This document shows positions 3,526-60,705 of a stretch of 64,000 nucleotides of DNA, piece by piece. This DNA is from Myxococcota bacterium (GTDB lineage: Bacteria; Myxococcota_A; UBA796; CAJQPC01). The position numbers were made by a program, and so were the translations under genes. The number at the start of each line of letters is the position of its first letter. Positions within the stretch are counted from its first letter, which is position 1. The stretch lies in the NCBI GenBank assembly GCA_036229005.1, contig JAZAMN010000018.1, positions 2,377-66,376 of the forward strand. The letters are read 5' to 3'. The notes beneath the pieces were generated by a model. The model saw only the letters and a program-made list of their open reading frames with translations, did not search any database and was not told the origin of the DNA.

Positions 3526-6345
3526 ATGCTCCTGCTCCTCTCGCTGCTCGCCCTCCCCGCCCAAGCCCAGTCCGCACAGTCACAGTCCGCCCAGGCCCGC
3601 GCTGCGGTGTCCTCGCCGGCGGAGGATCCCTGGCAGGTGACCCTGGAGGACGTCGTTCCAGCGGTGGTGTCGATCAAGGTCGTAGGGACCCGATCCTTTG
3701 ATACAGAATCCGCCGGCTCCAGCGTGGGCACGGGCTTCGTGGTGGACGCCGAGCGCGGCATCATCCTGACCAACCGACACATGGTCCACGCGGGCCCCGT
3801 CGTCGCAGAGGCCGTGTTCCTCAACAACGAGGAGGTGCCCCTGCGCGCGTTGTATCGGGACCCGGTGCACGACTTCGGCTTCTACCAGTTCGACCCCGAG
3901 GCCCTGCGCTTCATGGACCTGCACGAGCTGCCCCTGAACCCCGAGGGCGCCAAGGTCGGCACCGACATCCGCGTGGTGGGCAACGACTCCGGCGAGAAGG
4001 TCGTCATCCTGGACGGGACCCTGGCGCGCCTGGACCGCAGCGCGCCCGTGTACGGGGGCAACACCTTCAACGACTTCAATACGTTTTACTTCCAGGCGGG
4101 CTCCAGCACCTCGGGGGGCAGCTCGGGCTCGCCGGTGGTGAACCAGCAGGGGCAGGCCATCGCGCTGAACGCGGGGGGCAAGCGCTCGGCGGCCTCGTCC
4201 TTCTACCTGCCCCTGGACCGGGTGGTGCGGGCCCTGGAGCTGATACAGGAAGGGGAAGATGTGACACGGGGCACCCTGCAATCCGTGCTCACCTACACCC
4301 CCTACGATGAGCTGCGCCGCCTGGGACTGGGTGACGCAGACGAGGCCACCCTGAGGCAGGCCTTCCCCAAAGGCGAGGGCGCGCTGGTGGTCAGCGAGAC
4401 GCTGCCCCTGGGACCGGCCTGGGACAAGCTCAAGCCGGGCGACATCCTGCTGGAGGTCAACGGCCAGCCCAACAACGCCTTCATCCCCCTGGAGGCCGCC
4501 CTGGACGACGCCGTGGGCGCCGAGGTCCAGCTCACCATCAGCCGCGGCGGCGTGCGACAGACCCTGAGCCTGCAGGTGCAGGACCTGCACAGCATCACCC
4601 CCGACCGCTTCCTGAGCTTCGGCGGCGGCATCCTGCACCCCCTGAGCTACCAGCAGGCGCGCAACCACGCCCTGCCCGTCCAGGGTCTGTATGTGGCCAC
4701 CCCCGGCTACTCCCTGGGCCGCGCAGGCGTCCCGGACAGCGCGGTGCTCACCGCCGTGGACGGGACCCCCGTGAACACCCTCTCCGAGCTGGAGGCCCTG
4801 CTGGCCGGCTACGCGGACGGAGCGCGCATCCCCGTGCGCTACTTCGCGATCGACGACCCCCGCAGCGAGCGCGTGGCGGTGATGCGGGTGGACCGCACCT
4901 GGTCGCGCATGCAGGTCTGTGTGCGGGATGACGCGAGCGGCCTGTGGCCCTGCACAGACTCCCCTGAGCCCCCCGCCCCCACAGACCCCGAGGCCATGAC
5001 GGTGGACATGGCCGTGCCCGGTCCCAAGCCCGTCCGGGCCCTGGCGACCAGCATGGTTCAGGTCCGTGCGACCCTCCCGGTCCGGGCGGAGGGCGCGCCC
5101 GGCAGCTCCTACTGGGGCGCCGGCCTGGTGGTGGACGCCGAGCGCGGCTGGGTGATCTGTGACCGCGACACAGTCCCCATCCTGCTGGGCGACGTGGACC
5201 TGACCTTCGCCAGCACCCACCGCGTCCCGGCCGAGGTCGTGTTCGTCCACCCCGAGCAGAACCTGGTGGTCCTGCAGTACGACCCGGCCCTGCTGGGTGA
5301 CACAGTCGTGGAGTCCGCCGAGCTGCGGGACAGCCCCCTGGAGACCGGCGAGGGCATCTGGCAGGTGGGCATGACCGGCGCGGGCAAGATCGTGGGGCTG
5401 CCCACCACGGTGGGCCGCATCGACCCCGTGAGCCCCGACAGCCCAGGGGTGCCACAGTTCCGCGCCTCCAACGTCGAGGTCGCCGACGTGACCGACACAG
5501 TCCCCACCGTCGGGGGTGTTCTGTGCGACAAGCGCGGCCGCGTGTACGCCCTCTGGAGCAGCTTCCAGTCCGGGTCCGGGCGCAACGCGAGCACCTGGAT
5601 GGCCGGCACGCCCGTGTACGTCATCCAGCAGACCCTGGCCGCGCTGGAGCAGGGCCACGCCCCCCGTGGCCTGGGCGCACAGATCTCGCCCGTCTCGCTG
5701 AGCAGCGCCAAGGAGCGCGGCCTGCCCCCCGAGCTCGCCACAGAGCTGGCGGCCCTGGACCCCGAGCGCCGGCAGGCCCTGATGATCACCCGCGTGTCCG
5801 AGGGCACCCCCGCCTGGGAGCTGCTGCAGCCCGGTGATCTGGTGGTGTCGGCCGAGGGGATCCCGGTGACCCGGGTCGGGGACCTCACCACCGCGGCCCA
5901 AGCGGAGTCTGTGTCACTTCGTGTGGTGCGGGATGGCGCCGTCGAGGACATCGTCCTGCCGACCGTGGACTTTGGTCAGTACGCCGTGGACGACCTGCTC
6001 ATCTGGAACGGGCTGGTGCTGCACGAGCCCCACTGGGAGCTGATGGCCCAGAAGAACCTGTCCCCCGAGGGCGTCTACGTGGGTCTGTACTACTACGGCT
6101 CACCCGCGCAGCGCTACAACATCCGGGCCACCAACCGCATCCTGGCCATCGACGAGACCCCCACTCCGGATCTGGACGCCTTCCTGGCCGCCGTGAAGGA
6201 CCTGGAGGACGGCGAAGCGGTGAAGATCACCATGAAGGACCTGGAGGACCAGACCGTGGTCCGCACCATGAAGGTCGACAAGGTGTACTGGGGCACCGCG
6301 CGCTTTGTGTGGACCGAGGAGCAGGGCTGGGAGCGGGCCGAGTAG
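3526..6345 (+). CDS. secreted trypsin-like serine protease with PDZ domains (Nma111/HtrA-like)
   Basis: 939 aa. Signal peptide MLLLLSLLALPAQAQ; GTGFVVDAERGIILTNRHM and GSSGSPVV catalytic-type motifs; a duplicated protease-like half; PDZ-like segments (PGDILLEVNG, PGDLVVSAEG). Confidence 0.85.
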   Translation: MLLLLSLLALPAQAQSAQSQSAQARAAVSSPAEDPWQVTLEDVVPAVVSIKVVGTRSFDTESAGSSVGTGFVVDAERGIILTNRHMVHAGPVVAEAVFLNNEEVPLRALYRDPVHDFGFYQFDPEALRFMDLHELPLNPEGAKVGTDIRVVGNDSGEKVVILDGTLARLDRSAPVYGGNTFNDFNTFYFQAGSSTSGGSSGSPVVNQQGQAIALNAGGKRSAASSFYLPLDRVVRALELIQEGEDVTRGTLQSVLTYTPYDELRRLGLGDADEATLRQAFPKGEGALVVSETLPLGPAWDKLKPGDILLEVNGQPNNAFIPLEAALDDAVGAEVQLTISRGGVRQTLSLQVQDLHSITPDRFLSFGGGILHPLSYQQARNHALPVQGLYVATPGYSLGRAGVPDSAVLTAVDGTPVNTLSELEALLAGYADGARIPVRYFAIDDPRSERVAVMRVDRTWSRMQVCVRDDASGLWPCTDSPEPPAPTDPEAMTVDMAVPGPKPVRALATSMVQVRATLPVRAEGAPGSSYWGAGLVVDAERGWVICDRDTVPILLGDVDLTFASTHRVPAEVVFVHPEQNLVVLQYDPALLGDTVVESAELRDSPLETGEGIWQVGMTGAGKIVGLPTTVGRIDPVSPDSPGVPQFRASNVEVADVTDTVPTVGGVLCDKRGRVYALWSSFQSGSGRNASTWMAGTPVYVIQQTLAALEQGHAPRGLGAQISPVSLSSAKERGLPPELATELAALDPERRQALMITRVSEGTPAWELLQPGDLVVSAEGIPVTRVGDLTTAAQAESVSLRVVRDGAVEDIVLPTVDFGQYAVDDLLIWNGLVLHEPHWELMAQKNLSPEGVYVGLYYYGSPAQRYNIRATNRILAIDETPTPDLDAFLAAVKDLEDGEAVKITMKDLEDQTVVRTMKVDKVYWGTARFVWTEEQGWERAE

Positions 6346-6350
6346 CAGGC

Positions 6351-7193
6351 TCAGGACCCATCCAGCGGCGTGGGGCCCTTGCTCCAGGCAGGCAGCCGCC
6401 TGGGCCGCAGCCCGGGGCCCCGAAGGGCCCCCAGCGCGCCCACCAGCAGGCACACACAGAACACGGTCAGGGACTGTACGAGCTGGTACCAGGTGCGGTC
6501 CTTCCGCCAGTCCACACCTTGGCTCGTGGCGCCGTGCTGGCTGGGGACCTCGATCTCGAAGCGCTCGGACCAGGCTGTGGGCTCCCCGGCGGCGTCCAGC
6601 GCCTGCACCCGCACGCTCAAGCGCTCCCCTGGCACGAGCTCGGTGTTCTTGAAGCCGCAGCCCATGTCCCCCATCCAGAAGCGGCCAGAGGTGTGGGTGA
6701 AGGTCTCCACGCCGCGCTGGCTGCGCAGCTCGACTCTGTACCAGGCGGCGTGGGGGTCTCTGTTCACGTGCCCGGAGACGAAGAGCTGGTCGGGCCCACC
6801 GTTCCAGTGCTCGGCGACCAGCCCCTGGATCTCCACTCGGCGTGCGCGGGGCTCCCCCGGTCCAACCACAAAGTGGGTGACCTCGGCGTCCTGCCACAGA
6901 ACACGGTAGGCCGCGCCCTGGGTCAGGGTGTCCTCGACGGTGAGCTGGATGAACAGGGAGTTGCCCTGCTTCCAGACTGTGGGAGAGGTGGGGACGAGGA
7001 CCCCCGTGGGGCTCTCAAGCCTCAGCTCCCCCGGATCGATCTGCTCCGGGTCCGCCTGGTCCCACCGCAGGAGGATGGCCGGGGTCTGTGTGTGGACGAC
7101 CTTGCCGGCCTGGGGCACCCAGCCCAACAGCGTGGGGCTCTCGGGGGGCCAGCAGGAGGCCTGGACGGTGTTGGAGAGGAGGAGCAGGAGCAT
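6351..7193 (-). CDS. lipoprotein-like surface protein with C-terminal TM anchor
   Basis: ORF 6351..7706 trimmed to ATG 7193 (MLLLLLSNTVQASC...). Beta-sandwich-like body and C-terminal hydrophobic helix LTVFCVCLLVGALGAL. The upstream ORF part overlaps the next gene and looks non-coding. Confidence 0.6.
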   Translation of the reverse strand: MLLLLLSNTVQASCWPPESPTLLGWVPQAGKVVHTQTPAILLRWDQADPEQIDPGELRLESPTGVLVPTSPTVWKQGNSLFIQLTVEDTLTQGAAYRVLWQDAEVTHFVVGPGEPRARRVEIQGLVAEHWNGGPDQLFVSGHVNRDPHAAWYRVELRSQRGVETFTHTSGRFWMGDMGCGFKNTELVPGERLSVRVQALDAAGEPTAWSERFEIEVPSQHGATSQGVDWRKDRTWYQLVQSLTVFCVCLLVGALGALRGPGLRPRRLPAWSKGPTPLDGS

Positions 7194-7233
7194 GGCCGAC
7201 TTGGACACCGCAGGCGCCGGCCGGTTCCCACCC

Positions 7234-7803
7234 TCAGAGGATGGACTCCAGCACCTGCTGGAGGGTCTGGGCGCTGGGCCGGCCGGGACGTCCCTGGGAA
7301 GGGGCGACTGCGAGCCGGAGGTCACCATCCACCACAGACACAGCCGGCGCCCGACCCCGCTCCAACTGTACTTTGATGGCCCTGCTGAGGGCCTGATCAC
7401 CGAACTCCTGGCGGATGGCGGCCAGGGCCTGCTCCACCGACTCGACCACCTTGAGCACGGACAGGCGCTCGGCGGGGCCCTGCCACTGCGACCAGTCGAG
7501 CTCCAGCGTGAAGGTCTCCAGGGCGGCCACCCGGCGCTTGAGGGCCAAGGCGGTGGGCGGGGACTCTCCTCGGAGCTCATCGGCGCCGGAGAGGAGCAGA
7601 TCGCGCAGGCTGCTCGTGTCCTGGAGATCGTAGGCGGTGATCTGTGCGCGGTCCACCAGGTGCCAGCTCTGGCCCTCCAACAGCAGGCGCTGCGCGTCCA
7701 GGCCACGGAGGCGCCCGCGGAGGGTCTGTCCTCCCCGCAGGTGCACCGAGACCTGGCCCTGGGCGCCCAGGAGGGACTCGAGCAGGGCCTGGGTGGGGAT
7801 CAC
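7234..7803 (-). CDS. hypothetical protein
   Basis: ORF 7234..7803 (189 aa). GTG start overlaps the stop of the upstream gene (GTGA). No recognised domain. Confidence 0.55.
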   Translation of the reverse strand: MIPTQALLESLLGAQGQVSVHLRGGQTLRGRLRGLDAQRLLLEGQSWHLVDRAQITAYDLQDTSSLRDLLLSGADELRGESPPTALALKRRVAALETFTLELDWSQWQGPAERLSVLKVVESVEQALAAIRQEFGDQALSRAIKVQLERGRAPAVSVVDGDLRLAVAPSQGRPGRPSAQTLQQVLESIL

Positions 7804-8207
7804 AGAGCGTCTTCCAGCATGGTGGTGGCGCCCTCGACCCGCTCCTTGATGTTGTCCATGTTCGTGGTGGGCTTGTGGTCGATGGTGAACACGCCATCCG
7901 CGAAGGTGAAGCCGCGGTAGTTGCTCTTGCCGGAGTGGTTGCAGACCACCACCTTCTTGAGGCCCTCGTGCAGGGCCTCGCGGCCCATGTCGTCGATGGC
8001 GATGGCTTCGAGCACGCCGATCAGGGTCTCGAAGTAGACCTTGGTGAAGCCGTCCTCGTACAGATGGGCCTGGCCGTCGGTGGCGAGGCTGCCCCAGTCC
8101 ACCTCGACCTCCAAGGGCTTGCCATAGGCGGCGTCGATGCGCGCCTTGAGGGCCGGGTAGGTGTTGTCCTGGTACTGCTTGGCGGCGCGGCGTTCACGAA
8201 GGCCCAT
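7800..8207 (-). CDS. hypothetical protein
   Basis: ORF 7800..8285 trimmed to ATG 8207 (MGLRERRAAKQYQ...), preceded by AGGAGAG SD. 135 aa. Confidence 0.6.
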   Translation of the reverse strand: MGLRERRAAKQYQDNTYPALKARIDAAYGKPLEVEVDWGSLATDGQAHLYEDGFTKVYFETLIGVLEAIAIDDMGREALHEGLKKVVVCNHSGKSNYRGFTFADGVFTIDHKPTTNMDNIKERVEGATTMLEDAL

Positions 8208-8327
8208 GGGCTCTCTCCTGGCGGTTGGGAGGGTGCAGGTCCCCGCGGAGTGCGGTGCGGGGTTGCCTGCCCAGCCGGAACGCACAGAGGACGCCGGGGC
8301 TTACGGGCCCACAGTGCGTAGGTCTCC

Positions 8328-8726
8328 CTACAGCTCCTCAAGCATCTCGCGCAGGGCGGAGGCGGACATGGCGCCCACCTGCACGCGCTGCACCTGGCCC
8401 TGCCGGATGGCGACCACGGTGGGCGTGCCCATCAGCCCGAAGGCCTGGGCGGCCTCCATGTTCCGGGTGACGTCGACGCTGTGGACGCGGGTGTCGCCGG
8501 CGCCGAGCTCGCGGACCACGGGGTGCATGGCGCGGCAGGGGGCGCAGGTGGGCGAGTGGAAGAAGAGCAGGGCGTCGCCCTTGACGGCGTCTCCCAAGGG
8601 GCCCGGGATGTCGGGGACGGGCTCCCCCTGCAGAGCGGTGGCGCGGCGACGCATCCAGATCTGCAGGCCGATGAAGCCGCCGACAGCGAGCATGCAGAAG
8701 GCAAAGACGATGTTGTTCCAGTCCAT
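8328..8726 (-). CDS. membrane-anchored thioredoxin-family protein
   Basis: N-terminal TM helix (IVFAFCMLAVGGFIGLQIW) followed by a thioredoxin fold with CAPC active-site motif (FFHSPTCAPCRAM). Confidence 0.85.
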   Translation of the reverse strand: MDWNNIVFAFCMLAVGGFIGLQIWMRRRATALQGEPVPDIPGPLGDAVKGDALLFFHSPTCAPCRAMHPVVRELGAGDTRVHSVDVTRNMEAAQAFGLMGTPTVVAIRQGQVQRVQVGAMSASALREMLEEL

Positions 8727-8863
8727 GGGGACCTCAAGTCAAGTCAAGCAAGGCAAGGATGCATGCGCACCGGCGGGGTCGCGGAAAGGAGGGTGTGCTG
8801 ATCTGCCGCAGTTCCTCGCTGGCACAGGGGGTGTAGAGATCTGGCACTCGACTGGAGTTTGTT

Positions 8864-9415
8864 GTGTTGAAGACCAAGACTGCGATGTGGGCCCTGGGCC
8901 TCTCCCTCCTCCTCCCAGGCGCCGCCCTGGCCAAGCGAGGGGCCGAGGAGCCGCCGCCGATGAACCCGGATGACCACGAGCACCTGCAGGTGACGCAGGA
9001 CGTGAAGGTGGTGTTCCACGCGACCGAGGACGTCTGGAAGAAGGGCACGCCGCAGAGTCTGTGGTACATCCACAAGCTGGTGACCAAGGGATACCCCAAC
9101 ATGGGCGTGCCGGCGGAGGAGCTGGACTTCAAGCTGGTGGTGCACGACACGCCGGTCTACTGGTTCTTCACCGACGAGGCCTGGCCCAAGGCCAAGGGGC
9201 TCAACGGCGCCGCCCCGCTGGACCACAACCCCCACAAGGAGCTCATCCAGGAGCTGCTGGACGCCGGGGTGGACATCGAGGTCTGTGCGGTGACCCTCAA
9301 GTCCAAGGGCTACACCCAGGACATGCTGCTCCCGGGCATCAAGGTGACGCCGGCTGGTGTGCCGCGGGTGGTGGATCTGCAGCTCCAAGGGTATGCGTAT
9401 CTGAAGCTGCAGTAG
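8864..9415 (+). CDS. periplasmic DsrE/DsrF-like family protein
   Basis: Signal peptide (MWALGLSLLLPGAALA) and DsrE-like pattern: KVVFHAT..., LVVHD.PVYWF, VDIEVCAVTLKSKGY, PAGVPRVVDLQLQGYAYLK. Start is GTG 8864 or ATG 8885. Confidence 0.65.
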   Translation: MLKTKTAMWALGLSLLLPGAALAKRGAEEPPPMNPDDHEHLQVTQDVKVVFHATEDVWKKGTPQSLWYIHKLVTKGYPNMGVPAEELDFKLVVHDTPVYWFFTDEAWPKAKGLNGAAPLDHNPHKELIQELLDAGVDIEVCAVTLKSKGYTQDMLLPGIKVTPAGVPRVVDLQLQGYAYLKLQ

Positions 9416-9427
9416 GTCTGTCGCGGG

Positions 9428-10543
9428 CTACTGTGCTGGGTGGCAGTCGAAGCTGTAGAGCGTGCCGACGCCGCCAGCATGGCTGCTCTTGAGGTTGCGG
9501 TGGCTATCGTAGACAAACACGGTGCTGGTCTCCGTCTCGGCGGTCACACTCCACTGGACCAGCTCGAGGAGGTCCCCGGCGGCGTCGAAGGAGAACTCCT
9601 GCATGGACTGATGGTAGCCACCGGTGCCGTCGCTGAAGAGGTGATGCAGGACCGCGGGGAGCCCATCTGGGTCGAACACCACGTTTGTGTCTCGGAACAG
9701 GGTGCCGTCGTCCCACTCCGTGGTGCCGACCAACTGATCACCGATGTAGCGGTTCTCCCACAGAACGTAGGGGGTCTCGTAGCGCAGCAGCCTCTCGTCT
9801 TCCCAGGTGTAGACAGACTCCTGATCGCTGCTGCTGAGCAGCTTCCAGGTCGGTGTGTAGTGTCGGACGTCGTCGATCCAGCGCTCTCCTGTGCAGTACT
9901 CGTCCACGATCTGCGTCGCGCTGTATCGGGTATCGTCCCAGACAGTCAGCCTCTCGTAGCAATCGCTGAGCGTGTTCCCTTTGTACCGCGTCTCGCGGCC
10001 GAATTCGTCGTAGCTGTATTGGGTCGTGATGTTCCACTCGCCGTCTCGGTAGGTGGTCGACTCGCGCTGAGCGCCGCCTACACTCCAGACTGTGACCTGC
10101 TCCCAGGTTCTGTCCACCGTGAACACGCCTCCCAGGGGTCGGCTCTCGGACCGCCATTCTTGGTAGGTCGTTCCGAACTCCCCGTATTGGTACAGGGTCA
10201 CAGTCTGGTGCTGCAGGCCATCTGACTGGAGCAGCTCGCCCGAGAAGGTGAGGCGTCCGGCCGTGTCGTAGTCCTCCTGCTCCACGAGCGCTCCGTCGTC
10301 GGTCCAGCGACTGACTGTACGGATTCCTTCGGCGAGCAAGAGATGGTCGTCGAAGGGGTTGGTGTACAGGATGCCTCCGGCGCCGCGGTCGCCGCCTCGA
10401 TTGGCTGCCTCCACCGTGAACACACCCTCATCCACCCACCCATCGCCGTCGTCGTCCAACCCGTCACAGACCGCCTCTCGGCTCCCTGGAGAGCGCTCGG
10501 TGGTGGAGACGGGGGTGCAGGCGGACAGGAGCAGGAGCAGCAT
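9428..10543 (-). CDS. YD-repeat lipoprotein, array paralog 1 (last in array)
   Basis: 371 aa. MLLLLLSAC lipobox, CDGLDDDGDGWVDEG motif, YD-type repeats (YDTAGRL, YSYDEFGRE), C-terminal YSFDCHPAQ-stop. Confidence 0.8.
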   Translation of the reverse strand: MLLLLLSACTPVSTTERSPGSREAVCDGLDDDGDGWVDEGVFTVEAANRGGDRGAGGILYTNPFDDHLLLAEGIRTVSRWTDDGALVEQEDYDTAGRLTFSGELLQSDGLQHQTVTLYQYGEFGTTYQEWRSESRPLGGVFTVDRTWEQVTVWSVGGAQRESTTYRDGEWNITTQYSYDEFGRETRYKGNTLSDCYERLTVWDDTRYSATQIVDEYCTGERWIDDVRHYTPTWKLLSSSDQESVYTWEDERLLRYETPYVLWENRYIGDQLVGTTEWDDGTLFRDTNVVFDPDGLPAVLHHLFSDGTGGYHQSMQEFSFDAAGDLLELVQWSVTAETETSTVFVYDSHRNLKSSHAGGVGTLYSFDCHPAQ

Positions 10544-10582
10544 GAGGGGGTCTACTGTGGGGGGTGGCAGTCAAAGCTGTAG
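10415..10582. repeat. conserved 5' module plus junction of lipoprotein array, copy A (about 165 nt)
   Basis: Nearly identical by eye (one substitution and one 1-nt indel noticed) to 11551-11717. Covers the tail of the upstream paralog, stop, spacer, ATG, signal peptide and CDGLDDDGDGWVDEG coding region. Confidence 0.85.
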
Positions 10583-11679
10583 TGCGTCGTGACGCCGCCC
10601 GGCACGTAGCTGCTGCTGAGGTTGCGATGGCTCCCGGACATATACACAGTGCGACCCTGGTAGAGATCCTCGGAGTTGGACTGATCCCGGATCTCCGTCA
10701 ACTCGCCCGCCTCGTTGGTGACCAGGTCGCGCATGAGTTCGAGACTGGCATCCCCCGTGTAGTCCTCCCGAAAGACCTGTACCGAAGGGAGACCGTTGGC
10801 GCCGTACTTCAGGGTGGATTCGCGCACAAGCTCGCCTTCGAACAGCCTCTCGGTCCTTGACATCCGGCCTTCAGAGTAGCTGTTCACCAACAGATCCTTG
10901 GCCGATTCGTAGCGGGTCAGGAGGCCGTCCTCCCAGGTGAACACGAAGCTGCCGTCGGAGTCCGTGACAGGCTGCCCGTCCGTATTGTAGAACACAGTGC
11001 CGTGGACGGACCAGTCCTCGCTGCAGTCATCGTCCACGAGCGTGGTGACGCTGAGCGCGTCGTCGTCCCGTTCGTAGCGGTACTGCCTACACTCGCTGGG
11101 GCGCTCCAAGCGGTAGAACACGGTCTTGCCCTGCTCGTCGGTCTCCGTCGTCGCGGTCTGCTGCCAGACGCCGTTGTCGGTGACGATCTCGACCTTCCGG
11201 AGGCCCGCCTGCTCCCACCCGGTCTCCGTGGCTACGAGGCCATCCAGCTCGAACGCACCCCCAGCCTGGGACTGCACCTCGTGCCGGGTCTCCTGGTAGG
11301 TCTCCCCGTAGGGTCCGTATTCGATGGTGGTGAGGCGCTGCCAGGTCTCGGTGGCGTGGCCCTGCTCACTGCCGGTGAACACGATCCGGCCCAGGGTGTC
11401 GTACTCGGTCTCCAGGATGCTGGAGCCGTCGTCGGTCCAAGTGGTCACTCGGCGGATCCCCTCGGAGCGATGCTCCTGGGGGAAGACCACGTAGGAGAGG
11501 AATGCAGAGGTCCCGGCGGCTTGCCTCCCGTCCGGGAACACCAGGTCCATCGTGAACACACCCTCATCCACCCACCCATCGCCGTCGTCGTCCAACCCGT
11601 CACAGACCGCCTCTCGGCTCCCTGGAGAGCGCTCGATGGTGGAGACGGGGGTGCAGGCGGACAGGAGCAGGAGCAGCAT
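10552..11679 (-). CDS. YD-repeat lipoprotein, array paralog 2
   Basis: ORF 10552..11775 trimmed to ATG 11679 (MLLLLLSACTPVSTIERSPGSREAVCDGLDDDGDGWVDEG). YDTLGRIVF repeat; ends YSFDCHPPQ-stop. Confidence 0.8.
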   Translation of the reverse strand: MLLLLLSACTPVSTIERSPGSREAVCDGLDDDGDGWVDEGVFTMDLVFPDGRQAAGTSAFLSYVVFPQEHRSEGIRRVTTWTDDGSSILETEYDTLGRIVFTGSEQGHATETWQRLTTIEYGPYGETYQETRHEVQSQAGGAFELDGLVATETGWEQAGLRKVEIVTDNGVWQQTATTETDEQGKTVFYRLERPSECRQYRYERDDDALSVTTLVDDDCSEDWSVHGTVFYNTDGQPVTDSDGSFVFTWEDGLLTRYESAKDLLVNSYSEGRMSRTERLFEGELVRESTLKYGANGLPSVQVFREDYTGDASLELMRDLVTNEAGELTEIRDQSNSEDLYQGRTVYMSGSHRNLSSSYVPGGVTTHYSFDCHPPQ

Positions 11680-11717
11680 GAGGGGTCTACTGTGGGGGGT
11701 GGCAGTCGAAGCTGTAC
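11551..11717. repeat. conserved 5' module plus junction of lipoprotein array, copy B
   Basis: Direct repeat of 10415-10582, offset 1136 nt. Confidence 0.85.
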
Positions 11718-12826
11718 TCGATCCAACTGTCCCCGAACTGGCGCTCGATCCGCTCGATGTTGTGTTGGGAGTCACTCAGATACTCCGAGCGCCAGGACTC
11801 CGAGTCGTCCAGGTGGGAAGAGACCACCTGAGACAGACCACCCGCGGCGTTGTAGCCGAAGCGGGTAGACTTCTGCGAGCTGCCCTCCGAGGCGGTCCAC
11901 AGCAGGGGGAGGCCCCCTGCGGTGTATTCCATGGACGCCCAAGCGGTCCTCTCGCCCTGTTCGTAGGTGACACTCTGTGTGAGCAGCCCGCCCTGGTGTT
12001 CGTACTCCACCCGGTCGGCGCCGTCCCCCTGAACCACCAGGTCTGTACCCGCCCAGGTCAGGCTGGGGCTGTCGGGGTCGGTCCCGGTGGGCTGCCAGTT
12101 CGTGTCGTAATAGACTGTGCCTTGGTCGGCCCAGGTCCCGCCACAGTCCCGGTCAAAGAGCCGGGTACGGGTGAAGGCGCTGTCGTCCCACTCTGTGCGG
12201 GTCTGGCTGCAACTCCCGTCCCCGGTCTCGGTCACCAGGGTCTGGCGCCCCTGGGCGTCGTACTCGAACACCGCGTCGAAGGGGAGGCCGTGCTGCTCGC
12301 CGTGCACGCCCGCAAGCTGGCCAAGGTCGTTGTACTCCAGGGTCACATCCCACCACAGATCGGTCTGTGTCTGGCCGGTCTCCAGGTCCTCGGACGTGGT
12401 CTCGGAGCGCCACCAGGTTCTGCCGTATGGCCCCCAGGCGGCCTGCTGCAGGGTCTCGGTGCGCTCCTCGTCCCAGTCGCCGTGCCAGTTCAGGTCCCAC
12501 CAATGGATCTCCCGTCCCTGGCTGTCGTAGCGGCGCTCCCACTCCCGGAGCTTGGGCTCCAGGCCCTCGATGGCGGGGTAGGGCCGCTTGGTGCCGTAGA
12601 CCGTGGCCACGCCGGGCTGGATCTGCAGTGCGTCCTGGGGCTCAAAGCGCAGGGTCGGGAAGCTGCGCTCCAGATGGGTGGAGGTGGAGAGCTCAGGCTG
12701 GACGATGAGCACGCCTTCGTCCACCAAGCCGTCGGCGTCATCGTCCAGACCATCACAGCGGGCCTCGCGGGTACCGGAGGACTCTTGGGGTTGTGAGGCG
12801 CAGGCGAACAGAAGGAGCAGGAGCAT
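11687..12826 (-). CDS. YD-repeat lipoprotein, array paralog 3
   Basis: 379 aa. MLLLLLFAC lipobox, CDGLDDDADGLVDEG, RYDSQGREI / FEYDAQGRQ repeats; ends YSFDCHPPQ-stop. Confidence 0.8.
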   Translation of the reverse strand: MLLLLLFACASQPQESSGTREARCDGLDDDADGLVDEGVLIVQPELSTSTHLERSFPTLRFEPQDALQIQPGVATVYGTKRPYPAIEGLEPKLREWERRYDSQGREIHWWDLNWHGDWDEERTETLQQAAWGPYGRTWWRSETTSEDLETGQTQTDLWWDVTLEYNDLGQLAGVHGEQHGLPFDAVFEYDAQGRQTLVTETGDGSCSQTRTEWDDSAFTRTRLFDRDCGGTWADQGTVYYDTNWQPTGTDPDSPSLTWAGTDLVVQGDGADRVEYEHQGGLLTQSVTYEQGERTAWASMEYTAGGLPLLWTASEGSSQKSTRFGYNAAGGLSQVVSSHLDDSESWRSEYLSDSQHNIERIERQFGDSWIEYSFDCHPPQ

Positions 12827-12834
12827 GGTGAGGC

Positions 12835-13872
12835 CTACTGTGGGGGGTGGCAGTCGAAGGTGGTCGTGCTGGTCAGCCCGTCCTCGTCGATGGTCTGGGT
12901 GATGTTCAGGTGAGCGTCGCTGACGTAGCTTCGGAGGTGGGCCTCATCCGTGTCGAGTCGCCATGAGAGCTCGTCCACCAGACCGCCGACGGCGTTGAGG
13001 GTGTAGGTGGTGCGGGTCTCCTCTGTGGTCGTCCAGTATCTGTGTTCAACGAGTCGCCCCTGGTCGTCGTAGTCCGCCCATGCTTCGGCATAGGGCTCGT
13101 GCAGAAAGGTCTGCTCGCTGTGTACCAGGAGCCCCTGCTCGTAGGTGTTCCACTCGCTGTAGTTGGTGTCCGCGTAGCCCAGATACAGGTCCCCATCCCA
13201 CTGGTATACCCCATCGGGCTTGCCAAGGTCATACAGAGGGCGCCCGATCTCGTCGAACTGTACGCCTCCGTTCTCAACCCACTCGCCTGTGCAGCCCTCG
13301 TCCAGCCAGTCGCTGCGGGTGTAGGCGAGGTCATCCCAGTCGTATCTCTTGCTGTGGCAGGTCTCGTTCACCTGCTCGGTCCACCGGGTGTTGCGGCCCA
13401 GCGCATCGTACTCGGCCTCTCCGGTGCCGAGTTCTTCGGACAAGAGCTCGTCTTCTGAGTTCCAGTGTCGCCGCTCCCACTGTATGGTCTGCAGTCCGTA
13501 GTCACCCCAGGATGTCTCGACCTCGAGAACCCAGAGGGTGTCACCTGCGGGGGTCTCGAAGCGCTGCTGGACCAACCGGCCCTGGAGGTCGTAGACAAGC
13601 TCAGAGCTCCCCTCGAACTCACCGTCGCCGCTGACCGTAACCGTGGTGACTGTGTGAACACCGGGGAGCACCGAGCGCGACTCCAGATAGACGGTGTCGA
13701 TCCTCGTGATGGGCCAGCCAGAGAGGCTTGAGTCGAAGGGCCTGGCCTGGACGATCACCGCGCCCTCATCCACCCAGCCGTCGCCGTCGTCGTCCAAGCC
13801 ATCACACACGGACTCGCGCGTGCCCGGGGCGGTGTCATTGAAGGCGCTGCAAGCCAGAAGGAGCAGGAGCAT
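12835..13872 (-). CDS. YD-repeat lipoprotein, array paralog 4
   Basis: ORF 12835..14328 trimmed to ATG 13872 (MLLLLLACSAFNDTAPGTRESVCDGLDDDGDGWVDEG). YDLQGRL, YDALGRN, YDDQGRL repeats; ends TFDCHPPQ-stop. Confidence 0.8.
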   Translation of the reverse strand: MLLLLLACSAFNDTAPGTRESVCDGLDDDGDGWVDEGAVIVQARPFDSSLSGWPITRIDTVYLESRSVLPGVHTVTTVTVSGDGEFEGSSELVYDLQGRLVQQRFETPAGDTLWVLEVETSWGDYGLQTIQWERRHWNSEDELLSEELGTGEAEYDALGRNTRWTEQVNETCHSKRYDWDDLAYTRSDWLDEGCTGEWVENGGVQFDEIGRPLYDLGKPDGVYQWDGDLYLGYADTNYSEWNTYEQGLLVHSEQTFLHEPYAEAWADYDDQGRLVEHRYWTTTEETRTTYTLNAVGGLVDELSWRLDTDEAHLRSYVSDAHLNITQTIDEDGLTSTTTFDCHPPQ

Positions 13873-13880
13873 GGTGAGGC

Positions 13881-15014
13881 CTACTGTGGGGGGTGGCAGT
13901 CGAAGCTGTATTCGTTGCGGGTCTGGTCCCCTTCGCGGACCTCTGAGATGTTGAAGGTGTTGTCGCTCAGGTAGCTGACCTGCGTGGTGCTGTTGTCCTG
14001 TTCGCTCCACTCGGAGGACAGCGTGAGTCCTCCGGAGCTGTTGAACTCGTATTCGGTGAGCGTGGTGTAGCCTTGCGAGTCCTTGGCCTCCAGGTAGTAA
14101 GGGACGCCCTCGTCGTTGTAGGCGGCCCAGTGCTCTCCGGCGTAGTCGGAGAGGAAGGTGGCGATGGTGTGTACGAGCCGGCCGTCTCTGTACTCGAACT
14201 CCAGGGTGTCGTTCGTTGTGAATGCGCCGGAGAGCTTGCTGTCGTCCCACTCCAGAGTCAGGTCGCCGTCCTGTTCGTGCAAGGGGAACCAGAGGGCGTC
14301 GTACTGCACCACCCGGTCCTCCACCCACTGACCTGTGCAGCCCTGGTCCACCCAGTCACTGCGGGTGTAGGCGAGGTCATCCCAGTCGCTCCGCCACTGG
14401 CTACAGAGGGACCCGTTCCGCTCTGTGGTGAGGACCAGGCGCCCCTGGGCGTCGTATTCGTAGTCGGTGTCGACCGTCGTGCCGGAGCTGCTCTCGCTGT
14501 GTTCGGCGACCACCAGGCCGTCGCCGTCGTACTCGGTGTCCAGGGTGGAGACGGTCTCGTCCTGCAGCACCCCTTCCGCAGACCACTGCTGGAAGCCCGA
14601 CTCTTGGTGCTCCGGCCCGTGGGGGCCCCACACAGTCTGTTCGTAGTAGACCATCCGGCCGCCGTCTAGGGCGCTCGGCGAGCGCTCCAACCAGGAGCCG
14701 ATCAAGCGCCCCTGGGGGTCGTAGCGGAACCCGAAGGTAGCCACGTTGGTGTCTGACGAGTCAGGGTCCTGGGATTGGATCGTCACAGTCTGTACCCCGG
14801 GCAGCAGATCGAGGACCACCTGGGGCCCGGGATCCAGCACAGCCTGTGTCGTCAGGCCCTCAAAGTCCTGAACAGACAGCTCGGGGACCGCCAGGACTGC
14901 GCCCTCGTCTACGAAGCCGTCGGCGTCATCGTCCAGGCCATCGCAGACCTGCTCCCGCGAGCCGGGGCTTTGGCCTTCGGTGGGCGTCGAGCAGGCCAAC
15001 AGTAGCCACCACAT
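13881..15014 (-). CDS. YD-repeat lipoprotein, array paralog 5 (first in array)
   Basis: ORF 13881..15062 trimmed to ATG 15014 (MWWLLLACSTPTEGQSPGSREQVCDGLDDDADGFVDEG). YDPQGRL, YEYDAQGRL repeats; ends YSFDCHPPQ-stop. Confidence 0.8.
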   Translation of the reverse strand: MWWLLLACSTPTEGQSPGSREQVCDGLDDDADGFVDEGAVLAVPELSVQDFEGLTTQAVLDPGPQVVLDLLPGVQTVTIQSQDPDSSDTNVATFGFRYDPQGRLIGSWLERSPSALDGGRMVYYEQTVWGPHGPEHQESGFQQWSAEGVLQDETVSTLDTEYDGDGLVVAEHSESSSGTTVDTDYEYDAQGRLVLTTERNGSLCSQWRSDWDDLAYTRSDWVDQGCTGQWVEDRVVQYDALWFPLHEQDGDLTLEWDDSKLSGAFTTNDTLEFEYRDGRLVHTIATFLSDYAGEHWAAYNDEGVPYYLEAKDSQGYTTLTEYEFNSSGGLTLSSEWSEQDNSTTQVSYLSDNTFNISEVREGDQTRNEYSFDCHPPQ

Positions 15015-15077
15015 GCGTCCTCCAAGCTCGCCCCCACCATCGCACGCAGACCACCGGGCCACAAGGGCCCGCCTGAC

Positions 15078-16247
15078 TCAGTCCTTGGCCCTTCGTCCCA
15101 GCCGCCGCTGTTTGCGCTCACTGCTGCGGGCCTCGCGGCGCTCGCTGCGGGTGTCGCGGCGGTCCTGGCGCACATCGCCCCAGGCCTCGAAACGGTCGGC
15201 CAGCTTGGGATCGGCGAGCTCGGCGTCGACCAGGGCGGTGGGGTCCACGATGTCCTGGCCCTCGGGGACCTGGGCGGTGCCCTCTTCGACCAGGTGGTAG
15301 TCCAGGCGCACGGGCTCGCCACGGCGCTCGATGTCGACCCAGAGGACCTTGCGGTTGCGCAGGGCCAGGAAGGCGGTGACGGCCTCGGAGTAGGACTGGA
15401 TCTCCCGGCCGTTGACGGCCTGGATGATGTCGCCGCTGCGGAAGCCGGCCTGATCCAGCAAGGTGCCGCAGCGGATGCGGCCGACCTTGAAGCCGCGGCG
15501 CTCGCCCTGGTCGTCCTTGGCCCACCAGGTGGGGGCCAGGTCCTCGGCCTCCTTGGGGTGGGCGGCGTAGTGGGCGATGACCTGGTCTTCGATGCGGTAG
15601 GCGGTCTCGGAGACGGCGAAGATGTCCGCGCGCTCCGGCTCGCAGTTCTGGTGGGTGACCTTGGGGGCCTTGCGGGGGGCGCGGGTGCGGCGCACATGCT
15701 CGGTGTTGTCGCCGCCCTCGACCCCAGCGGGGCTGCCGGCCACGGTGCTGGAGGGGCCGCGGGCCAAGGCCTCGAGCTGGAGGCCGTTGAGCTCCCCGAG
15801 CGCAGGCTTGTCGGCGCCAGGCGGAGGCTCCAGGTCGTCGTCGGCGGTCGGCGCCAGGGTGTCCTCGCCGATGGGATCGGGCTCCGGGGTGTCCTGGGGC
15901 TCGGGATCCGGGGGGGTGGGGTCGGATTCCGGTGGGCTGGGATCCTCCTCCACCTCCTGAACCGGGTTGTCCTGCTCCAAGGGGTCGGGCTCCAGGGTGA
16001 GCTCGAGGTGCATGGGCTGGTAGACGGCGACGCGCTCGACGGGGGCGCTGATCTCCAGGCCTTCGAGCTCGGGGACGGGGGTGAGCCAGCCAAGCTGCCA
16101 GGGGCCCACGAAGCCAGCGCCGACGATGGCGAGGCTGAGGGCAGCGGCGATGGGGCGGGGCAGGGACACCGGGTCTCCGGGGGGTTGGGCGCCTGTGGGA
16201 CGCGCCTGCACGCTCTGATATTCGGCCGGCCGAGGGCGGGTAAGCAA
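15078..16247 (-). CDS. membrane-anchored PDZ-domain protein, GspC-like
   Basis: N-terminal TM (IAAALSLAIVGAGFV), Pro/Asp/Glu-rich linker, and a C-terminal segment resembling the GspC HR plus PDZ region (FKVGRIRCGTLLDQAGFRSGDIIQAVNGREI). Basic C-terminal tail. No other T2SS genes in the window. Confidence 0.65.
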   Translation of the reverse strand: MLTRPRPAEYQSVQARPTGAQPPGDPVSLPRPIAAALSLAIVGAGFVGPWQLGWLTPVPELEGLEISAPVERVAVYQPMHLELTLEPDPLEQDNPVQEVEEDPSPPESDPTPPDPEPQDTPEPDPIGEDTLAPTADDDLEPPPGADKPALGELNGLQLEALARGPSSTVAGSPAGVEGGDNTEHVRRTRAPRKAPKVTHQNCEPERADIFAVSETAYRIEDQVIAHYAAHPKEAEDLAPTWWAKDDQGERRGFKVGRIRCGTLLDQAGFRSGDIIQAVNGREIQSYSEAVTAFLALRNRKVLWVDIERRGEPVRLDYHLVEEGTAQVPEGQDIVDPTALVDAELADPKLADRFEAWGDVRQDRRDTRSERREARSSERKQRRLGRRAKD

Positions 16248-16274: not shown

Positions 16275-17234
16275 CTATTCCGGGGGGGTCTCCGGAGCGG
16301 GGCCGCCAGGGGCGCCGGGCGCGGCGGGGGGCGGATCGGCGGGCTGCACAGGCGCGGGCTCGCTGGGGACGCCGGGGGCCTGCTGGGCGGGATCTGCGGG
16401 GGCGGGGGCGGCGGAGACGCGGGACTGGGCGATCTCCAGGGCCTCGGGGAGCGCGGGCTCCAGGAGCATGAGGTAGAGGATGAGCTCGCGGCGCAGGTCG
16501 GCGAACCAGGGGCGGCCGGGCTCGCGGTCCTCGGCCTCGACCCAGAGGCCGGCGAGGTCCCACTGGTCGGCGACGGGGTCGAAGCTGCCGCGGGTGAGGG
16601 TGGCGTAGTCGCCGGGGGTGAAGAGGGTGCCCACCAGCGCGTTGAAGTCGCCGGGGTTCGCGTAGGGGTCCAGGCGGTGACGCAGGAAGATGAGGGCGTC
16701 GGAGAGGTGGGCCTCCTGCTCGATGGTGAGGGAGCGCAGCAGGGGCTGCTCGGCGGCGATGACCTCCTGGACGCCCTGGAGGCGGAGGGCCAGAAGCTCG
16801 CGCTCGAGCTCCTTGTGGGCGCGCTCCTGGGCCATGGGGCCGGCGGCGGCGAGCATGGCGGGGTCGGTGAGGGGGGTGCCGGCGCGGAGCTCGGACTCGA
16901 TGTCGGCGTAGGCCTGGGTCAGGGCGGGCTCGGAGCGGGCGACGGCGGCGGCCATCTCGCGGTCGATGCGGGCCTGCTGGTCGACGGCGACGGCGCGGGC
17001 CTCGGCGATCATCTGGAGCTGGGTGCTATCGAAGCTCATCCAGTCCAGCCAGATCGCGATGCGCACGCGCTGCTGGGCCTGCTGCTGCTCGGGCAGGAAG
17101 CTGTAGTCGTAGAGCATCTGCACCACGGGCGGGTGCGCGGCCTGGGCCATCTGGGCTTCGGCCTGGGCGACGGCGGCGGCGGTGGGCAGGGGCTCGGGCT
17201 CGGTGGCGCAGGCCAGCAGGAGGAAGAGATTCAC
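16275..17234 (-). CDS. lipoprotein, mostly helical, function unknown
   Basis: C-terminal part of ORF 16275..18593, with GTG start at 17234 (VNLFLLLACATEPEP, lipobox LLAC). The rest of the long ORF is antisense to the kinase gene and rejected. Confidence 0.6.
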   Translation of the reverse strand: MNLFLLLACATEPEPLPTAAAVAQAEAQMAQAAHPPVVQMLYDYSFLPEQQQAQQRVRIAIWLDWMSFDSTQLQMIAEARAVAVDQQARIDREMAAAVARSEPALTQAYADIESELRAGTPLTDPAMLAAAGPMAQERAHKELERELLALRLQGVQEVIAAEQPLLRSLTIEQEAHLSDALIFLRHRLDPYANPGDFNALVGTLFTPGDYATLTRGSFDPVADQWDLAGLWVEAEDREPGRPWFADLRRELILYLMLLEPALPEALEIAQSRVSAAPAPADPAQQAPGVPSEPAPVQPADPPPAAPGAPGGPAPETPPE

Positions 17235-32644: not shown

Positions 32645-32732
<88 letters not shown>

Positions 32733-32789
32733 CTTTCAAGCGGATCCGATTCATCCTGGATTCCCAATCTCGCATGCTGCGGGTGACCC

Positions 32790-32877
32790 GGAGGGGTGAC
32801 CGAGTGGACGAAGGTGCACGACTGGAAATCGTGTGTGCGGCAACGTACCGAGGGTTCGAATCCCTCTCCCTCCGCCA
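32790..32877 (+). tRNA. tRNA-Ser (anticodon GGA), class II, CCA encoded
   Basis: GGAGGGG acceptor pairs with TCCCTCC. Anticodon stem CACGA/TCGTG with loop CTGGAAA. T-arm GAGGG-TTCGAAT-CCCTC. Confidence 0.9.
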
Positions 32878-32945
32878 CCCGCAGCGCGTGTGAGCTCAGT
32901 GAGCTGCCCCCCATTGAGGGCAGCACAGAATCCTGGCTCGCCGAG

Positions 32946-41726: not shown

Positions 41727-42818
41727 TCAGAGCTCCGCGCCGTAGTCCAGCTCCTTGTCCCGGTACATGGAGTGGTAGTGGGTGACATCGCGCACGATCA
41801 CGCCGCTCTGGCAGCTCAGCTCGATCCACACCCGGGGCCCGTCGATGCGGAAGTAGGTGTTGGAGCTGTCCACGTCGGGGCTGCCGCTGCCGGCCCAGGC
41901 GATGTAGGTGTCGGCCAGGGCCTCCTCGGAGGTGTAGGCCTCCATCAGGGCGTCGGAGATGGCCTCGCCGTTGAAGTCGGTGACCCACTGCTCCAGCACG
42001 GCGTTGAAGAGGGCGAGCTGATCGCTGTCCAGCTCGGAGGCCAGCAGGCCGCTGCGGCTGGAGCCGCTGGGGTAGCTCACGGCGCTCAGGCTGCCGGTGC
42101 CGTACTCGACGGGGCCCAGCAGCACGTCGCCGAAGGTCGAGGAGAGCTTGGCGGTGGAGAGCTGGGTGCTGCTCAGGGAGTCGGTGAGCGCGACGAAGGC
42201 CTCGCCCTCCTCCACGACGGGGGCGTAGGTGACGCCGTCCAGGTCGAAGGCGCTCTTGGGCTCGGCGGCGATGTGGTTGGGGGTGGGGTAGCCCACGCCG
42301 TCCACGAAGGTGACGTTGTAGGCCATGTGGTGGTTGCCGAGCTGCACCATCCAGGAGCCCGTGGTGGCCGGCACGCCGTAGATGGCGATGATGCCCTCGG
42401 CCGAGGCGTAGTTGCTGCCGCCGCCGATCTCCTGGAGGTAGTCGTCGGAGGCCAGGATACCGATGTAGTCCTCGTAGCCCTCGTCGCTGAGCAGGACGGC
42501 GGCGAACGCGTCCATGGCGGCCAGGCTCTCGTCGGACATCTCCCCGCGGGCCAGGCCGGTGCGGCCGGCGGCGCCCAGGGGCAGGTTGGACCACAGGGTC
42601 TTGCTCTCGCTGTCGTCGAAGCTGTAGCCGACGACCTCCAGCTCGCTGTCGTCCAGGGTGGCCAGGAAGTTGTCGGCGGCGCAGACGATGGCTTCGCTCC
42701 CGGTGGCGCTGCTGCAGTCGCTGGTCTCGAAGGTCTCGTCGGTGAGCTCGCTGTCGGAGCCCTTGCAGGCCGTCAGCGCGGCGAGCGCGAACAGGGGGAT
42801 CAGGGGGGACTTGGGCAT
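41727..42818 (-). CDS. DUF3500-family lipoprotein
   Basis: ORF 41727..43376 trimmed to ATG 42818 (MPKSPLIPLFALAALTAC). Body and C-terminus (YFRIDGPRVWIELSCQ...HYHSMYRDKELDYGAEL) fit DUF3500. Paralog of 44167..45393. Confidence 0.7.
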   Translation of the reverse strand: MPKSPLIPLFALAALTACKGSDSELTDETFETSDCSSATGSEAIVCAADNFLATLDDSELEVVGYSFDDSESKTLWSNLPLGAAGRTGLARGEMSDESLAAMDAFAAVLLSDEGYEDYIGILASDDYLQEIGGGSNYASAEGIIAIYGVPATTGSWMVQLGNHHMAYNVTFVDGVGYPTPNHIAAEPKSAFDLDGVTYAPVVEEGEAFVALTDSLSSTQLSTAKLSSTFGDVLLGPVEYGTGSLSAVSYPSGSSRSGLLASELDSDQLALFNAVLEQWVTDFNGEAISDALMEAYTSEEALADTYIAWAGSGSPDVDSSNTYFRIDGPRVWIELSCQSGVIVRDVTHYHSMYRDKELDYGAEL

Positions 42819-42838
42819 CTCGGCTCCAGGGCTGGGGG

Positions 42839-45393: not shown

Positions 45394-45547
45394 CGTCACT
45401 CTCCAGGCAGTGCTGGCAGAATATGCCCAGCCCCACCTCGCTGAAACCTGGGATTCCAAGGGCTTATGAGGGCCTTCAGGTCCGTTGTTGAGACCTTAAG
45501 CTGGGCCTATGGAGGTCCCCTCACCTCCCCTGGAGGATCCCTCCTCC

Positions 45548-60497: not shown

Positions 60498-60705
60498 GCG
60501 CAACCCCGACTGAATGCACCCGCTGGCCGCGCAACCCCGACTGAGTGCCCCCCCTTGGCGCCTGTCCGGGCGCGATCCAGCCTCGCGATGGTGCATTCAC
60601 ATGGGGTTGCGCGCCGGCTCGGTGCACTCACAGGGGGTTGCGCGCCGGCTCGGTGCATTCACATGGGGTTGCGTCCTGCGTAGGTGCATTCGACTGGGGT
60701 TGGGG
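60498..60705. repeat. inverted array of about 23-nt units with 31-nt periodicity (2 + 4 copies)
   Basis: GCGCAACCCCGACTGA(A/G)TGC(A/C)CC at 60498-60520 and 60529-60551. Inverted copies GGTGCAYTCACAKGGGGTTGCG at 60590-60612, 60621-60643 and 60652-60673, plus a variant at 60683-60705. Confidence 0.85.

Follow-up and report, generated by a model that had tools for sequence, protein, structure and literature searches.

YD repeats are known almost only as toxin-encasing shells (Rhs, Tc toxins) or as the scaffold of teneurins, and the locus described here raises the question of what such a repeat does as a small, open, probably lipid-anchored sheet without cargo, multiplied in tandem. The locus lies in a stretch of 64,000 nucleotides (nt), called the window below, from a Myxococcota bacterium (assembly GCA_036229005.1, contig JAZAMN010000018.1, positions 2,377 to 66,376). 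Five consecutive minus-strand open reading frames (ORFs) of 345-379 amino acids (aa), described in an earlier note on this DNA, were all found in the ORF list: gene A (13881-15014, 377 aa), the promoter-proximal member of the array, gene B (12835-13872, 345 aa), the second member, gene C (11687-12826, 379 aa), gene D (10552-11679, 375 aa) and gene E (9428-10543, 371 aa), the last member. The answer preferred here, to which about an even chance is given, is that the array is a small replacement-type island, whose exported, probably lipid-anchored YD-sheet proteins would serve as variable exposed modules for binding or recognition; frequency-dependent selection would maintain their diversity, and homologous recombination would transfer it.

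The comparison with L001, a contig of a sister strain, revealed the variation. The DNA of the two is ~98.5-99% identical on both sides of the array and across C, D and E, whereas a variable tract (12884-15014, unstranded) opens exactly at the A start codon and closes ~50 nt short of the B stop codon. Identity in segments of 100 nt was 97-100% outside the tract, 42-68% across A and 64-94% across B, and was 100% again at 12883. The flanking genes share 95-100% protein identity, with a synonymous divergence (dS) of ~0.04 (0.02-0.09) and, for most, a ratio of nonsynonymous to synonymous divergence (dN/dS) of 0.06-0.13. Gene A and its counterpart A' share 42% protein identity (dS 1.0, dN 0.65, dN/dS 0.65), and B and B' share 76% (dS 0.30, dN 0.157, dN/dS 0.52). 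The remaining counterparts are 98.4% identical for C (dN/dS 0.13), 97.6% for D (10 nonsynonymous and 6 synonymous differences, dN/dS 0.50) and 97.8% for E (8 nonsynonymous, 3 synonymous). L002, from an independent assembly, matches L001 at 100% identity along 9.4 kb, and an independent contig, L003, carries the A allele (99.9%) with its flanks; since both haplotypes are thus backed by independent contigs, an assembly chimera is unlikely, with a marginal chance at most. The two A alleles came from two samples of a single study.

Comparisons between other genomes gave the same picture. Between L004 and L006, the flanks are 89-92% identical in DNA and 93-97% in protein, whereas the arrays, of two and four genes, show no detectable DNA similarity and a protein identity of 30-41%; between L006 and L007, array proteins are 60-68% and flanking proteins 87-92% identical. 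The locus is hypervariable: alleles or the whole array are replaced between genomes with near-identical flanks, and the array is the fastest-changing spot of its genomic neighborhood.

All relatives with readable context have the array at one chromosomal site in related marine Myxococcota, where a divergent gene for a 1100-aa Ser/Thr kinase is followed by genes for a ~310-aa lipoprotein and a GspC-like PDZ protein, the array, and a convergent gene for a ~935-aa HtrA-like protease. The comparison of copy number that the earlier note had proposed gave 0, 2, 4 or 5 copies at this site, with five in the window and L001, four in L006, two in the L004 group and none in L020; L007 has at least two. 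In L020 (5381-7480, Ga0055584_100015530), a relative ~80% identical in DNA, the PDZ gene is followed by the convergent protease gene 66 nt away, with no array. Upstream of the intact genes L6_4 and L7_1, remnants ending in ...YSYTCGVAD* and ...TYSDVCTEAD* (L006 7925-7993 and L007 8728-8850) look like relics of deleted cassettes. The range of 0-5 copies and these relic tails show an array that expands and contracts through tandem duplication and deletion. A 160-nt insertion was also observed, splitting the second array gene at L009 9823-9982 and likewise in L017 and L014; it ends in perfect 8-nt terminal inverted repeats (CTGACGTG...CACGTCAG) and looks like a miniature transposable element.

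The family is rare and restricted to this lineage of uncultured marine Myxococcota. The window proteins B and C are exact matches to the NCBI entries VX899_07350 and VX899_07345 of a Myxococcota metagenome-assembled genome. A search of 5.8 billion protein clusters gave 6 matches, all from this strain or the sister strain, and an exhaustive profile search of 1.84 billion cluster representatives gave ~15 full-length relatives of 314-401 aa, the remaining matches being long Rhs proteins, through the repeats, or multi-MopE proteins, through the N-terminal motif. Further word-indexed protein searches, made with an 18-sequence alignment and then with an alignment lacking that motif, added P0152 and P0153 among the matches listed. 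A scan of GTDB genomes with the family alignment gave, among the matches listed, the true relative L004 and a long MopE-repeat protein that matched by the motif only (L005). When metagenomes were scanned with the PDZ neighbor, four loci were found, of which three duplicated known haplotypes and the fourth was the array-less L020. In a neighbor-joining tree, the five proteins of the window and their alternative alleles formed a single clade; hence, the five copies arose within the present lineage.

The proteins A-E are related far beyond chance (BLASTP E-values of 1e-11 to 1e-61), and their pairwise identity of only 25-40% bears out the description of proteins strongly diverged between shared anchors. 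Alignment of A-E showed that the lipobox Cys is invariant at residue 8-9, that the Asp-rich motif near the N-terminus reads R-E-x-x-C-D-G-L-D-D-D-x-D-G-x-V-D-E-G and that a central Cys pair is kept (C204 and C226 in A). Every YD unit quoted in the earlier note was located in the sequences. The C-terminal FDCHP(P/A)Q tail, called invariant in that note, is present in A-E, its invariance being limited to the present species; the wider family keeps at this end only a Cys 4-9 residues from the terminus and an aromatic-x-aromatic-x-C strand. Throughout the wider family, the proteins have exactly five Cys, which occupy equivalent positions, and are very acidic (isoelectric point 4.05-4.3); this fits exported, disulfide-bonded proteins. 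Two disulfides may be proposed, one across the central hairpin (C204-C226) and one joining the N-terminal motif to the last strand (C24-C373).

The Asp-rich motif had been likened to the metal-binding-type motif of Myxococcota lipoproteins. The likeness extends to the second half of PF11617 (positions 9-30 of 30), with scores of 13.4-19.9 bits that lie below Pfam's cutoff of 27, and the acidic loop may bind calcium. The CDGxDxDxDGxxDE sequence of the array proteins is what matches this half of the model, and many long proteins with multiple copies of the motif match positions 9-60 of the family profile. The array proteins differ from the MopE-type Myxococcota proteins (PF11617) in that they have a single copy of the motif with one Cys instead of the usual set, followed by the YD sheet.

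It was found by profile search, as had been proposed, that RHS_repeat matches A at 27.9 and C at 26.2 bits (cutoff 22), with B and E below threshold and no match for D; the YD-repeat model TIGR01643 scores A at 23.5 bits. The family profile also matched solved Rhs proteins (RhsP, E=1e-17; RhsA, E=2e-12). The AlphaFold2 model of A, likewise proposed as a check, is all-beta, with 26 strands in consecutive hairpins (predicted local distance difference test (pLDDT) 78, predicted template modeling (TM) score 0.67); that of E also consists of all-beta hairpins (pLDDT 68), and both have ~25-26 strands over residues 40-373. Foldseek searches of the PDB gave Rhs and teneurin shells as top matches (probability 1.0), followed by OspA single-layer sheets, with TM-scores of up to 0.42 on the query and 0.08-0.16 when normalized to the targets. 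By sequence profile and predicted fold, A-E belong to the Rhs/YD-repeat superfamily at the level of the repeat, their hairpins being homologous to the YD-type hairpins of Rhs/YD-repeat proteins (PF05593, TIGR01643; RhsA 7Q97, RhsP 8H8A, teneurin shells). The plan suggested for the protein consists of an ultrashort lipobox, a short linker, a single acidic, Cys-containing DxDxDG-like (calcium-loop-like) motif and a YD sheet. The sheet is predicted to be open and to comprise ~13 YD-type beta-hairpins, with an internal Cys pair and a last strand that ends in Cys.

The earlier note had not recognized the family as a described one, and this was confirmed insofar as no family in Pfam, NCBIfam, PADLOC or PHROGs matched over the full length and none of defense or phage type matched at all; the curated libraries yielded for A-E no more than single weak YD-repeat matches and the sub-threshold MopE-type motif, and literature searches found no published description of YD-repeat lipoproteins. 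According to that note, a full-length match to a characterized family, or relatives with a single conserved ortholog, would make this an ordinary paralog cluster; no such match was found, and both copy number and sequence vary. The repeat type and the island concept were already known; new are the architecture (ultrashort lipobox, lone acidic Cys motif, ~13-hairpin open sheet, four structural Cys) and its occurrence as the sole content of a hypervariable islet. A side result of the structural searches concerns phages: the best viral fold match to A was the 398-aa BFVD entry A0A8S5LL98 of Siphoviridae sp. ctvod4, annotated as having a lipoprotein attachment site (TM-score 0.43/0.41, E=8e-12), so that small lipobox proteins with YD-like sheets may exist in phages too.

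How the variation arises can be read in part from the DNA. Successive array genes are separated by 8 nt, and a GGAGGA Shine-Dalgarno sequence lies 4 nt 5' of the ATG of A. A scan for promoters and terminators found nothing; since the run has no terminator-like site, A-E probably share a transcript with the two genes upstream. No extra copies, fragments or motif matches occur elsewhere in the window. The junctions between genes, consisting of tail codons, stop, 8-nt spacer and signal-peptide codons, form the direct-repeat family D9, with one module at A/B (13842-13908, minus) and repeats at B/C (12796-12862, minus) and D/E (10513-10579, minus) that are 81-100% identical in DNA. Junction alignment and direct-repeat search thus showed tail, spacer and leader to be partly homogenized at the DNA level. 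The 5' end of E (10410-10549, minus) is 99% identical to that of D (11546-11685; direct-repeat family D3), and codons 1-40 of the two genes differ at 0/32 synonymous and 1/94 nonsynonymous sites, whereas the whole proteins are 40% identical; this 140-nt identity is a footprint of gene conversion or duplication. In most other paralog pairs, the region of the N-terminal motif shows 0.4-0.8 synonymous differences per site. That gene conversion made the N-terminus invariant was accordingly accepted for D/E alone and rejected for most pairs, in which synonymous sites are saturated; D/E excepted, the motif appears to be kept mostly by purifying selection on the protein.

Gene B is mosaic between the strains: B and B' differ by 172 substitutions at every codon position and by no indel, with clusters at codons ~92-165 and 225-300. 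The synonymous divergence of the A and B alleles, saturated or strongly raised, is 7-25 times the background, which indicates that they are much older than the strains and that recombination brought them in or kept them. They therefore look like alleles that are old or were imported and that homologous recombination has exchanged, and not like products of diversification in situ. The breakpoints of the tract lie in conserved sequence, namely in the upstream spacer or the PDZ gene at one end and in the 3' end of B at the opposite end. The spacer between PDZ gene and A (15015-15077, minus), which holds the GGAGGA sequence, shows 100% conservation between strains and marks the tract's left edge, and dS in the PDZ gene at this boundary is twice the background.

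Arrays and islands of comparable appearance are known. The tandem variable lipoproteins of Mycoplasma (Vsp/Vlp arrays) and the single-layer-sheet lipoprotein OspA of Borrelia resemble the present system in their tandem lipobox genes with conserved leaders and ends and variable bodies, and in the anti-parallel beta-hairpin sheet, respectively. They differ in that there is no sequence homology, that the array shows no evidence of phase variation or switching and that its host is free-living and marine, not a host-associated pathogen. Polymorphic envelope proteins of Myxococcus xanthus include the SitA lipoprotein toxins. The TraA receptor of the same organism, and thus of the same phylum, is a polymorphic envelope protein whose allele diversity is tied to kin recognition (PMC13184517), which provides a precedent. 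Homology to TraA or SitA was not detected, and the array has no PA14-like or toxin domain, no immunity genes and no link to outer-membrane exchange.

A close parallel is found in replacement flexible genomic islands, in which close strains have a similar product encoded by different alleles at the same site, boundaries are sharp, substitutions at the edges of the replaced region are raised and mostly synonymous, and exchange by homologous recombination was inferred (PMC4033161). Such islands of aquatic microbes were attributed to exposed structures under phage pressure (Lopez-Perez, Martin-Cuadrado, Rodriguez-Valera 2014; PMC4033161). The same site, differing alleles and sharp edges were all found both for the window against L001 and for L004 against L006, and the boundary gene has raised synonymous substitution as well. 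The array differs in being only 2-6 kb long and in consisting of one paralogous family, not of glycosyltransferase or O-antigen clusters, and its products may be structures exposed to phages, to judge from the lipobox, the Cys pattern and the acidic motif.

Under the island reading, the array would occupy a fixed site, 3' of the GspC-like PDZ gene and, in relatives, 5' of the convergent HtrA-like protease gene, and its size would have changed by tandem duplication and deletion. Alleles or whole arrays would be replaced through homologous recombination in the conserved flanks and junctions, and no dedicated mutagenic or switching mechanism would generate the diversity. The products would act on the envelope as variable ligand-binding or recognition proteins, with their diversity upheld by frequency-dependent selection, e.g., through attachment of phages or predators or through cell-cell recognition. 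If the proteins are exposed, marine Myxococcota would have variable surface proteins of a new class, and the locus would be a compact single-family replacement island that is handy for studying the upkeep of strain-level surface diversity in wild populations; if they are not, the array would be a fast-evolving orphan paralog cluster of limited interest. A more far-reaching version is considered distinctly improbable: junction modules and flanks could act as portable homology, by which co-occurring strains exchange whole YD-lipoprotein cassettes and the cassettes are reordered within an array; the set of exposed YD sheets, different in each cell line, would be a strain-specific code for recognition or adhesion (as in the kin discrimination of TraA) or a moving phage target. 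If true, this would be a previously undescribed variable-surface system of miniature Rhs-type sheets.

The main rival is that A-E form an ordinary, dispensable paralog cluster drifting under relaxed constraint, in which the strain differences reflect one or two chance imports, with neither diversity-maintaining selection nor an exposed recognition role; this is judged unlikely, though it retains an appreciable share of the probability. It fits the 160-nt insertion that disrupts the second copy in some strains and the drop to zero copies in L020. A further set of observations weighs against the island reading; three of them (on the L004 species, the paralog cores and third codon positions) also fit the rival. 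Strains of the L004 species at 98.6% identity have arrays no less conserved than their flanks, which indicates that replacement is episodic. Only one intraspecific pair of alleles was compared. The dN/dS of 0.5-0.8 in D and E rests on 8-10 substitutions, and in the paralog cores the proportions of nonsynonymous and synonymous differences (pN and pS) are about equal, with both site classes saturated, a pattern that does not separate positive selection from relaxed constraint. The weaker bias at third codon positions (GC3) that had been noticed is correct but modest (0.82-0.87 against 0.91-0.99 in flanking genes, with a local GC of 63-67% against ~70%) and could reflect merely low expression. 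Surface exposure, lipidation and a ligand are predictions, and the leaders of the family, with Cys at residue 8-11 and no preceding Lys or Arg, break the usual signal rules. Three independent comparisons, each with a divergent array set sharply against near-identical flanks, nevertheless speak against a drifting cluster, as do the intact ORFs, the purifying selection on the five Cys and the N-terminal motif in all copies, and the recovery of both A alleles from one study's samples.

The leaders deserve a closer look. The rule of PROSITE PS51257 includes a basic n-region and a lipoprotein Cys at about residue 15-35. The lipobox LSAC of D and E fits the pattern [LVI][ASTVI][GAS]C, LLAC (A and B) and LFAC (C) are atypical at position -2, and the pattern is conserved across all family members. 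The choice of start codon is settled by Shine-Dalgarno sequences together with upstream stops. Ultrashort lipobox N-termini, with Cys at residue 8-10 and no Lys/Arg n-region, were also observed at three other places in the window (17234, minus; 25216, plus; 28799, minus), on proteins unrelated to each other, one of which is an OmpA/TSP3-repeat protein (MSILLALAAC). The fixed starts and the recurrence of the leader on these three proteins point to a habit of the lineage, not to mis-called starts; the ultrashort lipobox looks like a lineage-wide way of writing lipoprotein leaders. A-E are predicted to be exported and lipid-anchored, and they are probably exposed. The occurrence of such leaders here and on other envelope proteins raises the question of the minimal requirements for lipoprotein export.

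An alternative that is compatible with the island reading, and which is regarded as quite doubtful in itself, assigns the array proteins to the GspC-like PDZ protein as cargo; an adaptor related to the machinery of type II secretion (T2SS) would recognize the lipoproteins and carry them to the cell surface, which PulA and InvL likewise reach by way of the T2SS. That surface lipoproteins can depend on the T2SS is established (PMC12802150), and the gene in question (15078-16169, minus; a membrane protein of 363 aa) lies directly upstream of the array in every array-bearing genome. The match of its product to NF041515 (GspC_delta, E=1e-22) reaches 81 bits against a curated cutoff of 150 and covers only model positions 178-309 of 311, that is, the PDZ-containing C-terminal part; matches to PDZ_6 and PDZ_2 are both slightly below Pfam's 27-bit cutoffs. 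The neighbor is therefore described as a GspC-like PDZ protein, short of the score, the full-length coverage including the HR domain and the T2SS gene neighborhood expected of GspC itself. No gsp or other T2SS genes turned up among the window ORFs scanned, and L020 keeps the PDZ gene without an array. Among L004, L006 and L007, the PDZ protein keeps an identity of 87-93% while the tails of the array proteins differ, which means that the two do not co-vary. Binding of the invariant C-terminal tail by the PDZ domain was considered as well and found unsupported, given that tails differ between and within relatives and that the PDZ gene persists where there is no array.

That the array is a polymorphic toxin system with variable toxin parts, built on the encapsulated toxins of Rhs type or on myxobacterial lipoprotein toxins like SitA, is largely refuted and has hardly any probability left. 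The YD repeats, the lipobox, the polymorphism between strains and the Myxococcota host are what such a system would share with the array. The Rhs shell closes with >600 aa of repeats, for which the ~330 aa of the array proteins are far too short, and the N-terminal plug, autoprotease core, toxin and immunity gene of Rhs proteins are all missing here; conversely, the lipobox, the acidic Cys-containing motif, two extra Cys pairs and the tandem paralogs are features of the array that are not found in Rhs. A regular-expression search of 15 family members for the Rhs autoprotease motif PxxxxDPxG gave no match, with one isolated DPDGL in E. The proteins of the family end 4-9 residues past the last strand, with array spacers of 8 nt or genes that overlap by 4 nt. 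Since nothing follows the last beta-strand there is no toxin domain, and 8-nt spacers leave no immunity genes; PADLOC, Pfam and NCBIfam gave no toxin match, and variation is located within the repeat sheet instead of at the C-terminus. The earlier description of short, toxin-less, lipobox-bearing YD proteins amplified head to tail was thereby upheld.

Programmed variation, whether as the target of a diversity-generating retroelement, by conversion from silent cassettes or by phase switching, shares with the array the conserved ends, variable cores and homogenized junction modules, but it is largely refuted and carries scarcely any weight: no reverse transcriptase was found among the window ORFs scanned and no template repeat or silent cassette in the window (the search did not extend to invertible promoters), the B/B' substitutions fall on all codon positions and on 47 A, 46 C, 48 G and 31 T without adenine bias, the copies are all complete genes in a single transcriptional direction, and the alleles differ at saturated synonymous sites. 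Of the diversifying cassette array envisaged in the earlier note, the strong variation of copy number and sequence between strains was borne out; the programmed switching that the word "cassette" suggests was not, each copy being a complete gene.

The remaining neighbors of the array were characterized with respect to position and family. The conserved run begins with a gene for a predicted lipoprotein of 319 aa (16275-17234, minus), which starts with MNLFLLLAC and was assigned to no family. The protease gene (3526-6345, plus) encodes an HtrA/DegP-like serine protease of 939 aa with PDZ domains, matching NCBIfam degP_htrA_DO with E=3e-33 and 115 bits, below the 416-bit cutoff. In L004 and L006 the protease gene adjoins the end of the array, and in the window five extra genes (6351-9415) intervene. 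One of these (6351-7193, minus) encodes a 280-aa Ig/fn3-like protein that differs from its L001 counterpart by 15 nonsynonymous and 4 synonymous substitutions (dN/dS 1.28); another (7234-7803, minus) encodes a DUF4908 protein with 6 nonsynonymous and 3 synonymous differences (dN/dS 0.76). Both genes are absent at the corresponding position in L004 and L006. In L011, L012, L016, L019 and L007, a gene for a PAS/HisKA/HATPase sensor kinase (485-609 aa) lies between the gene for a 285-aa lipoprotein and the PDZ gene; it is absent in other strains and represents a second presence/absence polymorphism beside the array.

Repeats were also observed elsewhere in the window. Two neighboring paralogs at 41727-43376 and 44167-45459 (minus) have DNA segments of 53-300 nt in common, with an identity of 75-82%; the product of the second is a DUF3500 protein, and the pair adjoins a HupE/UreJ-domain gene. 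Direct repeats of 89 nt at 32645-32733 and 32790-32878 (plus) are 78% identical and appear tRNA-like by eye. At 60590-60702, a 31-nt unit, GGTGCAYTCACAKGGGGTTGCGCGCCGGCTC, is present three times in tandem, directly 5' of the ORF at 60684.

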